A stretch of 64,000 nt of DNA from Escherichia phage SHEFM2K: sequence record PQ390715.1; one strand, 5' to 3'. Position numbers and translations under genes: made by a program. The notes under the pieces were generated by a model, which was not told the origin of the DNA, made no database searches, and was given only the letters and a program-made list of their open reading frames with translations. The stretch's first letter is position 1, and each line of letters opens with the position of its first letter. Positions 38,135 through 40,526 of this stretch are shown in pieces.

Positions 38135-38172
38135 AAAAAAGGAGAGCATAATGCTCTCCTTTTCTTTTTTTA
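38135..38172. terminator. Bidirectional terminator (A-run, GGAGAGCAT-a-ATGCTCTCC, T-run) between the convergent giant gene and ClpA-like gene
   Basis: Perfect 9-bp stem flanked by AAAAAA on one side and TTTTCTTTTTTT on the other. Confidence 0.75.
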
Positions 38173-40458
38173 TACTAGTGCTTTATCTACAGCTTTGGTA
38201 CGTTTCGGCTTAATACCGATTTTACCATCAATAACATCAAATGTAATGTTACCACCATTCACAAGTGAACCACACAACATTTCTTTAGCTAGTGGCACAC
38301 GAATGTTTTGTTCAATGGTACGTTTCATTGGACGTGCACCCATACCAACTTTTACCCCATTTTTCGCAAGCCATTCACGTGCAGCTTTTGTCAATGTAAC
38401 TTTAACATTACGGTCTTTGACTTGTTCATTCAAACCACCCATGAACTTATCAATGATGCTGTCAATAGCTTCACTGCTTAGGTCTTTAAACGTAACGATA
38501 CTATCAATACGGTTAATAAACTCTGGTGGCAAGAATGCTTTAATTGCCTTGTCCTGTGCAGTGTCACTACCGCTCATACCAATGCTACGCTTTGTTGAAT
38601 CAGCCGCACCAAGGTTTGTAGTCATAATAACAGTTACGTTATTAAAATATACAGTTTTACCTTGAGAACCAGTCAGACGACCTTCATCCAAAACCTGTAG
38701 GAAGGTTAGTAGTACTTTACGATCTGCTTTTTCAATTTCATCAAGTAACAGTACTGCATTAGGGAACTGCTCAATTTTATCCAACAGTAAACCGTTACCA
38801 GAATCATGACCAACATAACCTGGAGGTGAACCAATTAGTTTAGAAACAGTATGTTCTTGAGAAAATTCTGACATATCAAAGCGAATGAGTTCCGCACCAG
38901 TTGCGTCTGCTAATGCTTTGGTAATTTCTGTTTTACCAGTACCAGATGGTCCAACAAACATAAATGCACCCTGAACACTAGATTTGTCACGCAGTCCTGC
39001 ACGAGCTACCATCACGTTATCAACTAATTTTTGAATAGCTTCCTCTTGACCGTATACACGTGAGCGTAGTGCATCTGGTAGATTACGCATACGATCACTT
39101 TCAGTACATGCAACCACGTTGATATCCAAATTGGCAATACCAGCAACAACTTCTTGAATCAAATTGGCAGTAATAAGCTTACTATTGTTGTCACGTGAAC
39201 GAACTTTAGCCGCAGCAGCATCCATTAGATCAATTGCTTTATCTGGGAAGTGCTTATTCTTCAGGAATTTATCACTGAGAGAAATTACAGCATCCATTGC
39301 ATCAGATGTGAACTCAACATTATGGAATTTTTCATACGTTGGTTTCAAACCATTAACAATTGCACGAGTTTCATCAATTGTCGGCTCAACTACGTCAATT
39401 TTCATAAAACGACGAGTTAATGCACTATCTTTCTCGATATTTTTACGATATTCATCATATGTTGTTGCACCAATTACACGAATCTCACCACGTGAAAGTG
39501 CTGGCTTAAGCATATTGCTCATGTCCATAGAACCATTACTTGCGGAACCAGCCCCAACCATAATATGAATTTCATCAATGAAAACAATAGTATTTTCACG
39601 TTTCTTTAGTTCTTTTAGCAAATTGTCGATGCGTTCTTCAAATTCACCACGATACTTAGTACCAGCAGTCAATGCACCAACATTTAGTGAAAGAATTTCA
39701 ACGTCTTTCAGGTGTTCAGGTACGTTACCATCAGCAATAGCTTGTGCAAGCCCGTCGATGATTTGTGTTTTACCTACACCAGCTTCACCAGTGAGAATAG
39801 CATTCTTTTTGGTTTTGCGAGCAAGAGTCTCAATCAATGCAGACAATTCTTTCTGGCGACCAATCATAGGATCTAGTTTGCCTTCTTTTGCAAGAGCAGT
39901 TAGATTCGTTGTATAGTCTTCCAAACCTTTTTGTTTAGATGATTGCTGCTGTTGGGCCACTTTTTTATCTCCAATCGGTTCGTCATTAATACTTTGTAAG
40001 TTGATACCCTTATCAAGTGACTCAACGTGTTTCTGTAATGCACGTGCAGCTTCAGTACAGCTAACACCTTCTTCTTTTAACGCAGCTTCTAGTGCTGTGT
40101 TAGGGAAAGACAGACATTCGAATAGAACAAAATATGCATCAATCGAAAAATCATCACTTTTTAGTTGTTCAATAACTGATTTTTTAGAAAGCTCATGTAC
40201 AACGCGATTCACTAGAAGTGAAGTTCGATTCGCGTCTTCATCTTTAACACTTTTTGGTGCATGTGGAACTGTTGTATTTTTAAGATAGTTCATCAGGCGG
40301 TTGTGCAGTTTGTCTGCATCAATGTTCATATCTTCAAATACGTTCTTGATGCTATCAATAGTCAGTACTGTGGCACTTACGTGGTCAATAGTCAAGAATG
40401 TATGACCTAGAGATGTTGCCAGTTCGTCGCTTTTTTTGAACAATTGAGTAAGATTCAT
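38170..40458 (-). CDS. clpA: ClpA-like two-domain AAA+ unfoldase (Clp N-domain, D1, D2) with an IG[M] tripeptide at the ClpP-docking-loop position, about 762 aa
   Basis: D1 Walker A GEAGVGKT, Walker B IVFIDEIH, sensor/Arg block RVIGATT...RRF; D2 Walker A GPSGTGKT, Walker [18 protein letters not shown]; KRSIGMSGS aligns with E. coli ClpA KSIGLIHQ; no ClpB-type middle coiled-coil; length near E. coli ClpA (758 aa). The track start at 40479 is a GTG; the ATG at 40458 has an AGGAG RBS. Confidence 0.85.
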
Positions 40459-40498
40459 GTATTCTCCTATGTGATTCACGTCACTCTAATTAATAAAC

Positions 40499-40526
40499 AT
40501 TATATCACATTCTTACGGTTTGTCTA
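40499..40526 (-). promoter_or_regulatory. Candidate sigma70-like (early) promoter for the ClpA-like gene: -35 TAGACA, 16-nt spacer, -10 TATAAT
   Basis: On the minus strand TAGACA-N16-TATAAT lies about 40 nt upstream of the ATG at 40458; no TATAAATA late octamer is present there. Confidence 0.3.

Follow-up and report, generated by a model that had tools for sequence, protein, structure and literature searches.

A ClpA-family unfoldase gene of Rak2-like jumbo phages and its probable phage-encoded protease partners

We analyzed a stretch of 64,000 nucleotides of DNA from Escherichia phage SHEFM2K (sequence record PQ390715.1), referred to below as the window, and focused on a minus-strand gene, here called clpA, whose product resembles the bacterial unfoldase ClpA. 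The gene occupies a single long open reading frame (ORF) at 38170..40479, which encodes 769 amino acids when counted from a GTG, the first possible start in the ORF list. The true start is almost certainly an ATG further inside the frame, because the sequence AGGAG stands five bases upstream of it and the same start is annotated in two related genes, gp246c of phage phAPEC6 and gp539 of phage PBECO4 (Table 1). A preliminary description of this DNA had given the gene a span of 38170-40526; the long ORF holds up, but the upper bound does not, as it lies in noncoding DNA at the first base of the −35-like hexamer of the promoter.

The product is predicted to be a catalytically intact, double-ring AAA+ unfoldase of the ClpA family. 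It matches the Pfam families Clp_N, AAA, AAA_lid_9, AAA_2, and ClpB_D2-small, which together with the motifs and alignments delineate an N-terminal domain (N-domain) and two complete AAA+ modules, D1 and D2. The Clp_N match is weak (21.7 bits vs. a cutoff of 20.7) and takes in only one repeat where ClpA has a double repeat. HMMER aligned the protein with ClpA in an uninterrupted stretch, with no middle domain between D1 and D2. Its best match among solved structures was E. coli ClpA (E = 2e-180), again in one stretch (residues 24-748 against 20-734), whereas the structures of ClpB, ClpC, and Hsp104 aligned in two stretches broken at their middle domain. Membership in the ClpB/Hsp104 family was rejected on this two-piece match and on the presence of a docking-loop homolog in the phage protein. 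An AlphaFold2 monomer model had a mean predicted local distance difference test (pLDDT) score of 78.6, and Foldseek matched it to the ClpA chains of ClpAP cryo-electron microscopy (cryo-EM) complexes with template modeling (TM) scores of 0.82-0.88 and 47-48% identity; its alignment to full-length ClpA (1R6B/1KSF) covers 754-762 columns.

Identity to E. coli ClpA varies strongly along the chain, at 18% in the N-domain (which aligns with ClpA residues 20-143), 10% in the linker, 51% in D1, and 46% in D2. The Walker, pore-loop, Arg-finger, and sensor residues are invariant among 70 homologs that share 38-93% identity; K230, D295, E296, R349, and R350 of D1 belong to this invariant set. The best NCBIfam family was ClpA (TIGR02639), although the equivalog cutoffs were missed both for this family (755.1 vs. 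993.15 bits) and for NF008263 (654.5 vs. 1350 bits). The protein as read from the gene is thus ClpA-like, yet it is no ClpA equivalog under the NCBI rule. PHROG 4871, labeled “ATP-dependent protease,” gave a full-length match of 1036.4 bits (residues 9-763 against profile positions 11-761 of 764). These results place the product with ClpA rather than with ClpB, ClpC, or ClpE. They bear out the preliminary description, which had called it ClpA-like on the grounds of its N-domain, its pair of complete AAA+ modules, and the lack of a ClpB-type middle domain; all motifs that it quoted, including SIGMSGS, were located in the product.

SIGMSGS contains the tripeptide that the preliminary description had placed at the ClpP-docking loop, and the alignment agrees. 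In E. coli ClpA, the IGL loop comprises N606-T637 (10.1101/820209), and the phage tripeptide IGM falls column for column on ClpA I617-G618-L619 in the equivalent loop of D2. The tip of the phage loop (residues 624-630) has pLDDT below 50 in the AlphaFold2 model, as would suit a mobile docking loop. Beyond IGM, the phage loop falls short of the E. coli loop by 2 residues in pairwise and 11-sequence alignments and by 4 columns in a 120-sequence alignment, and it holds no counterparts of I620 and H621, both of which touch ClpP in the ClpAP structure (10.1101/820209).

We compared this loop with 147 diverse cellular ClpA-like representatives, clustered at 50% identity, and with the phage clade (n = 115). 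The docking tripeptide of a ClpP-partnered ClpA has the form [ILVM]-G-[FL]. In the cellular set, its Gly is present in 145 of 147 sequences (7th percentile of column entropy) and Phe stands third in 128 of 147 (21st percentile); Met occupies the third position in a single sequence, which reads IGM. In the phage clade the third residue is Met in 60 sequences, Val in 12, Phe in 12, Leu in 10, Ala in 9, and Gly in 7, placing this position at the 92nd percentile of variability, and even the Gly gives way to Ser, Asn, or Ala in 19 of the 115. The tripeptide varies by Rak2-like genus, reading IGM, LGL, IGV, MNM, LGM, MGM, or VGF. Exchanges as slight as I268L or F270L in E. coli ClpX severely reduce ClpP binding (PMC7112951). 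This sensitivity of the ClpX loop, taken with the divergence of the phage loop, argues for a matched partner.

The clpA region is 99.9% identical at the DNA level to the corresponding region of the Asteriusvirus phages PBECO4, 121Q, phAPEC6, slurp01, SP27, and others, which places the source phage among the Rak2-like jumbo myoviruses, with genomes of ∼350 kb. The contrast with the T4 gene set drawn in the preliminary description is therefore not applicable. Homologs with at least 60% identity were found in 70 phage records of this Rak2-like group, whose hosts are Escherichia, Klebsiella, Salmonella, Cronobacter, Pectobacterium, Erwinia, Serratia, Yersinia, and Xanthomonas, and at least five phage genera keep the gene. 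It is a member of the Rak2-like ClpA family (121Q gene 581, PBECO4 gp539, phAPEC6 gp246c, RaK2 ORF069, CBB gp235, and the GAP32 protein; PHROG 4871), being 99.9% identical to the genes of PBECO4, 121Q, and phAPEC6, 75% to that of RaK2, and ∼62% to those of CBB and GAP32, and it occupies the same position between a giant baseplate-module protein and tail genes. In a large protein database the phage clade formed a separate block at 847 bits or more, with the first cellular ClpAs at 654 bits or less. A recent capture of the host gene was rejected; identity to E. coli ClpA is 41%, no higher than to unrelated bacterial ClpAs, and the acquisition is therefore old.

As the preliminary description had noted, no clpP is present in the window: a tblastn search of the 64 kb found no ClpP-like sequence. 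Partner genes were read from the whole genome of PBECO4, and ClpP and a ClpS-like protein were seen in the relatives. PBECO4 gp105 spans positions 2-179 of 182 in Pfam CLP_protease, with a score of 141 bits. It shares 36% identity with E. coli ClpP (E = 2e-38) and retains the Ser/His/Asp triad. Its homologs are annotated clpP in slurp01, phAPEC6, RaK2, GAP32, and CBB. The reading of gp105 as a prohead protease was rejected, since PBECO4 has a separate T4 gp21-like prohead protease (gp520) and gp105 is a full ClpP with its triad. The second partner, gp457, carries a ClpS domain with a 73-residue N-terminal extension and a C-terminal extension; its 121Q homolog is annotated “protease adapter protein ClpS.” This ClpS-like protein is fast-evolving, equal in this to the ClpA N-domain. 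In the alignment, gp457 is altered at several positions that bind the N-degron in E. coli ClpS (D36 to P, M40 to A, and H66 to N), and its specificity may depart from the classical N-degron rule.

The three genes co-occur in the same genera, with ClpA in 70 records and ClpP in 69 (both at 60% identity or more) and the ClpS-like protein in 71, all Rak2-like. In each of the relatives that were checked, a ClpP with an intact triad is encoded along with a ClpS-like adaptor. Judged from these genes, the ClpS-like/ClpA/ClpP set is complete in the Rak2-like clade, its members being dispersed in the genome. The PBECO4 genes bearing an ATPase annotation yielded no other Clp-type ATPase (ClpX, HslU, or Lon), only DnaB-like, Rad50-like, and generic AAA proteins. 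Two further PBECO4 genes with peptidase annotations lie near clpP. One, gp096 (L003:17372-17965), is labeled “HslV family” and gave no Pfam match; the other, gp097 (L003:18293-18901), has a hydrophobic N terminus and a subthreshold ClpP-like match of 17.5 bits, and may be a degenerate or secreted relative of ClpP.

We then compared the surface of the phage ClpP that would receive the loop, using the 14 ClpP residues listed as contacting the IGL loop (10.1101/820209). The phage ClpP matches E. coli ClpP at 2-3 of the 14, the count depending on how the C-terminal tail is aligned; examples of the changes from E. coli to phage are Y60T, F82S, F112L, and L114G. ClpP R192 aligned differently between runs, and no conclusion was drawn from it. 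The idea that the pocket is more diverged than the rest of ClpP was rejected, the two being statistically indistinguishable (2-3 of 14 vs. 34-36% identity overall), and our claim is therefore limited to the pocket not being conserved. A conserved C-terminal extension of ∼18 residues (...KRRGGVEEWV; ...GPRNEEGKYLVKRRGGVEEWV) is a further common feature of the phage ClpPs and is absent from the ClpPs of E. coli and of the Pseudomonas phage PA5oct. It follows directly on a strand that contributes to the docking pocket, and it could add to partner binding or specificity.

When loop and pocket were set side by side over 9 lineages, the third loop residue appeared to co-vary with ClpP positions 82 and 112. 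Phages whose ClpA tripeptide is IGM, LGL, MNM, LGM, MGM, or VGM have Ser, Cys, or Asn at ClpP position 82 and Leu at position 112; those with IGV (RaK2), VGF (XaC1), or IGF (PA5oct) have Tyr or Met at position 82 and Phe or Tyr at position 112. Loop and pocket together point to a matched phage ClpA–ClpP interface.

The −35 and extended −10 elements of the promoter in front of clpA are conserved in phages Ecwhy_1 (with a perfect TTGACA) and A4, and RaK2 and CBB have versions of their own at the same place. Sites matching the sigma70 consensus at 11 or more of 12 positions are rare, with only four in the 64-kb window, two of which face clpA. An additional, uncertain candidate promoter also faces clpA; it sits ∼270 nt ahead of the clpA start, within the coding region of the structural gene that diverges from clpA. 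The late-type motif TATAAATA (T4-type) occurs six times in the window, each time some tens of bases ahead of the start of an ORF; its total is not above chance in AT-rich DNA, and its placement is consistent. The scan of the window found no TATAAATA motif before clpA. The promoter is thus sigma70-like and not of the late type, as had been proposed.

The clpA promoter also belongs to a family with the pattern GACA-N13-15-TGnTATAAT, which can also be written (G/T)(G/A)GACA-N14-16-TG(A/C/G)TATAAT. The window contains 4 such sites where 0.11 would be expected, each on the minus strand; PBECO4 contains 25 where 0.2 would be expected, likewise confined to one strand. In PBECO4, a member (TGGACA-16-TGaTATAAT) occupies the 64-nt spacer upstream of clpP. 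Family promoters also stand directly upstream of several small genes and of the genes for the primase, SSB, an exonuclease, the late sigma factor, and the Dda helicase. The ClpS-like gene follows 3.2 kb after the helicase promoter and belongs to the same series of genes on one strand. A similar second promoter class has been described in CBB, upstream of DNA-synthesis genes and a gp55-like sigma factor (PMC5259590). The GACA-N13-15-TGnTATAAT family probably represents the middle promoters of these phages. That clpA, clpP, replication genes, and the late sigma factor have a promoter class in common suggests middle, preassembly timing, with clpA and clpP coexpressed with the replication genes before the late phase.

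Table 1. Features of the clpA gene, its surroundings, and the partner genes. Positions are those of the window except for the two PBECO4 genes, which are given in the PBECO4 genome.
Feature	Position	Strand	Remarks
clpA-like coding sequence	38170..40458	−	762 aa plus stop; ATG at 40458 favored over GTG at 40479
Shine–Dalgarno sequence AGGAG	40464..40468	−	5 nt before ATG 40458; kept in Ecwhy_1 and A4
clpA promoter TAGACA-16-TGaTATAAT	40499..40526	−	11 of 12 consensus positions plus extended −10
Second promoter candidate TTGACA-18-TATAAT	40729-40758	−	12 of 12; uncertain
N-terminal domain, residues 1-146	40021..40458	−	Clp_N match; helical in AlphaFold2 model
Flexible Gln/Lys-rich linker between N-domain and D1, residues 147-178	39925..40020	−	pLDDT <50 at 156-176
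D1 AAA+ module, residues 179-448	39115..39924	−	Motif coordinates and conservation
D1 Walker A GEAGVGKT	39766-39789	−	
D1 pore loop KYRG	39646-39657	−	
D1 Walker B IVFIDEIH	39565-39588	−	
D2 AAA+ module and C-terminal small domain, residues 449-762	38173..39114	−	Pfam, motifs, Foldseek
D2 Walker A GPSGTGKT	38929-38952	−	
D2 pore loop GYVG	38809-38820	−	
D2 Walker B	38725-38751	−	
IGL-equivalent D2 loop, residues 615-644	38527..38616	−	Aligned to ClpA 606-637
Tripeptide I626-G627-M628	38575-38583	−	
D2 sensor-2 GARPM	38326-38340	−	
Family promoter	12825-12850	−	
Family promoter	17526-17551	−	
Family promoter (clpA site)	40499-40524	−	
Family promoter	61501-61526	−	
Late motifs TATAAATA	11018, 12907, 17557, 23596	+	Structural module
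Late motifs TATAAATA	3858, 5067	−	Structural module
3333-aa ORF	28132-38133	+	Directly after baseplate wedge gene; convergent with clpA
Hairpin between giant ORF and clpA	38137-38163		12-bp stem, flanked by A-run and T-run
PBECO4 gp105, phage ClpP	72185..72880		RefSeq label “head maturation protease”
PBECO4 gp457, ClpS-domain protein	249684..250229		Pfam ClpS 24.7 bits vs. cutoff 23

clpA is the lone minus-strand gene inside a baseplate/tail module. On one side, the plus strand carries a baseplate wedge gene and then the gene of a 3333-amino acid virion protein, the giant ORF with which clpA had been described, correctly, as convergent. The counterpart of this protein in phAPEC6, gp245 (382 kDa), was detected in the virion by mass spectrometry, and its size and its place beside clpA are conserved in RaK2 and CBB. 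On the other flank lie, divergently, the gene of a virion protein and a sheath-stabilizer gene. The gene arrangement around clpA is identical in A4, Ecwhy_1, RaK2, and CBB. The hairpin between the giant ORF and clpA has a folding energy of −16.9 kcal/mol (z = −4.4; matched by 0 of 200 shuffles) and is likely a bidirectional intrinsic terminator. The virion proteome table of phAPEC6 lists gp245 and gp248 and no Clp protein.

Elsewhere in the window, tRNA and Rfam scans of the 64 kb gave no matches. The region 12106-12944 (∼840 bp) is unannotated in PBECO4 and has no ORF above 45 amino acids and no tRNA or Rfam match; a family promoter (12850..12825, minus strand) is directed into it. The region could hold a noncoding RNA or small peptides.

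Our results on the family membership, motif integrity, loop position, and promoter type of clpA, on the coconservation of ClpP and the ClpS-like protein, and on the absence of the protein from the phAPEC6 virion proteome are direct observations, from which we infer the physical pairing of ClpA with ClpP, the timing, and the substrates. On balance, we favor the view that the clpA product supplies the ATP-driven unfolding activity of a ClpS-like/ClpA/ClpP protease encoded by the phage, a reading that we hold with some confidence. In such a protease, phage ClpA would assemble as a hexamer whose diverged N-domain, possibly aided by the ClpS-like protein, would pick substrates. The KYRG and GYVG pore loops would thread these substrates at the expense of ATP, the flexible IGM-tipped D2 loops would dock in the remodeled pockets of the phage ClpP tetradecamer, and ClpP would degrade what is delivered to it. 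Candidate substrates are host, defense, or phage regulatory proteins. An extended version of this proposal is that the protease is private and orthogonal, insulated from host ClpX, ClpA, and ClpP by its Met-type tripeptide and by a remodeled pocket with a C-terminal extension, that its adaptor/N-domain interface has coevolved away from that of the host, and that it destroys selected host or defense proteins in mid-infection. We offer this extension tentatively and think it rather less than an even bet.

Several points weigh against a phage-encoded ClpS-like/ClpA/ClpP protease. In PBECO4 the three genes lie ∼80 to 260 kb apart and form no operon. The ClpP and ClpS-like genes were seen in relatives, the phage's own genome having been read over the 64 kb of the window, and the timing is deduced from the functions of neighboring genes. 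Some lineages have IGA, IGG, MSM, or MNM, which relaxed selection and a loss of ClpP docking would explain equally well; IGM itself is chemically near IGL; the pocket identity is not significantly under background; and the co-variation comes from a small sample without phylogenetic correction. In the literature searched we found no experimental work on the Clp proteins of phages of this clade or on their expression timing.

The nearness of IGM to IGL leaves room for an alternative in which the loop docks on E. coli ClpP, instead of or besides the phage enzyme, and redirects it to host or defense proteins. IGM stands exactly at the IGL position and keeps the hydrophobic-Gly-hydrophobic form, the tripeptide also occurs once in the cellular set, and E. 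coli ClpP is known to accept both the IGF loop of ClpX and the IGL loop of ClpA (10.1101/820209 and PMC7112951). The preliminary description had framed this recruitment for a phage without a ClpP, and in that form it is not supported, for the PBECO4 relative encodes both a ClpP and a ClpS-domain protein, each conserved in the clade. With an active-looking ClpP of its own, the clade probably has no need of the host's. The lack of counterparts of the ClpP-contacting residues I620 and H621 also speaks against docking on the host enzyme, as does the observation that conservative tripeptide exchanges and altered loop lengths cripple binding by ClpX (PMC7112951), and in related phages the tripeptide drifts to IGA, IGG, and MSM. 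We consider use of the host ClpP distinctly improbable.

The drift of the tripeptide, which gives the impression of relaxed constraint in the clade, would instead suit an unfoldase or remodeler that works without a peptidase, for example in folding or assembly of the adjacent 3333-amino acid baseplate-associated protein or of further virion proteins of very large size. A part in the assembly of virions or in translocation was suggested by Iyer et al. (PMC7824862), and in Asteriusvirus, RaK2, and CBB clpA strictly keeps its place, flanked by the giant structural gene and the tail genes. PA5oct is arranged similarly, its clpA coming after dnaJ and ahead of large structural genes. The structural module is generally collinear in these genomes, however, and the conserved position therefore carries little weight. 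Moreover, clpA lies on the opposite strand to its neighbors, with a nonlate promoter and a terminator of its own, and its promoter class is shared with clpP and replication genes and not with structural genes. ClpP co-occurs everywhere with clpA, and no Clp protein was found in the phAPEC6 virion. A peptidase-free chaperone is, in our judgment, unlikely. As for a decaying or nonfunctional remnant of a captured bacterial gene, the scores under the NCBIfam ClpA equivalog cutoffs and the very diverged N-domain could be read in this way. The catalytic and pore-loop residues are, however, invariant in 70 homologs, the uninterrupted frame comes with a promoter, a ribosome-binding site, and a terminator of its own, and at least five phage genera retain the gene. 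Its 41% identity to E. coli ClpA, the same as to any other bacterial ClpA, indicates an old acquisition under selection. This conservation pattern effectively refutes the remnant reading.

The existence of a phage-encoded ClpA-like protein in this group is already known. The find of the preliminary description is a rediscovery, for the gene is annotated as ClpA in many public genomes of the same group. That description had allowed that the protein might prove to be a common, characterized component: it is indeed a common, annotated core gene, and the papers searched contained no experimental characterization of it. Two comparative papers mention clpA in this phage group (Attai et al.; Iyer et al. 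2021, PMC7824862), the latter listing ClpA and ClpX among jumbo-phage AAA+ chaperones. The literature on phAPEC6, Sharanji, fEgEco12, and PA5oct omics held nothing on Clp, and the word “Clp” is absent from a 2026 review of jumbo-phage biology. As far as we searched, the hypervariable docking tripeptide, its apparent co-variation with the ClpP pocket, and the 25-member shared promoter family appear not to have been described previously.

If the three genes do form a self-contained protease with a private docking code, this would be a clear case in which a virus has imported a whole pathway of regulated proteolysis, going beyond an adaptor or inhibitor. The clade would then be a natural experiment on how much change the interface between the IGF/IGL loop and its pocket tolerates, and possibly a source of orthogonal degradation modules for synthetic biology.

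The closest known system is ClpAPS of E. coli (ClpA, 1KSF/1R6B; ClpAP, 6UQE, 6W20, and 7UIV-7UJ0). Phage and E. coli ClpA have the same layout of N-domain, D1, and D2 without a middle domain, the same Walker, pore-loop, Arg-finger, and sensor motifs, and a flexible D2 loop with a hydrophobic-Gly-hydrophobic tripeptide. They differ in that the phage protein has IGM for IGL, a shorter loop lacking I620 and H621, and a longer linker, and in that its partner is likely the phage ClpP with its remodeled pocket. ClpB/Hsp104 and ClpC/ClpE share the N-domain and two AAA+ modules with the phage protein but have a coiled-coil middle domain and align in two stretches, and ClpB has no docking tripeptide.

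Among other large phages, PA5oct encodes a ClpA that is 41% identical to the present one, ∼13 kb from a phage ClpP; it keeps the canonical IGF together with a more E. coli-like pocket (6 of 14 residues). The PA5oct gene directly follows a dnaJ-like gene ahead of large structural genes (L017:2305-5223), and adjacent ClpA and DnaJ genes have also been reported in the Agrobacterium phage Atu_ph07. Atu_ph07 encodes ClpA, ClpP, ClpS, ClpX, and ClpB (PMC6102473), and Bacillus phage G encodes ClpP and ClpX (PMC12484599). ClpP has been seen in the virion proteomes of PA5oct, CBB (CBB_104, a single peptide), and phage G, whereas the phAPEC6 table is without Clp proteins.

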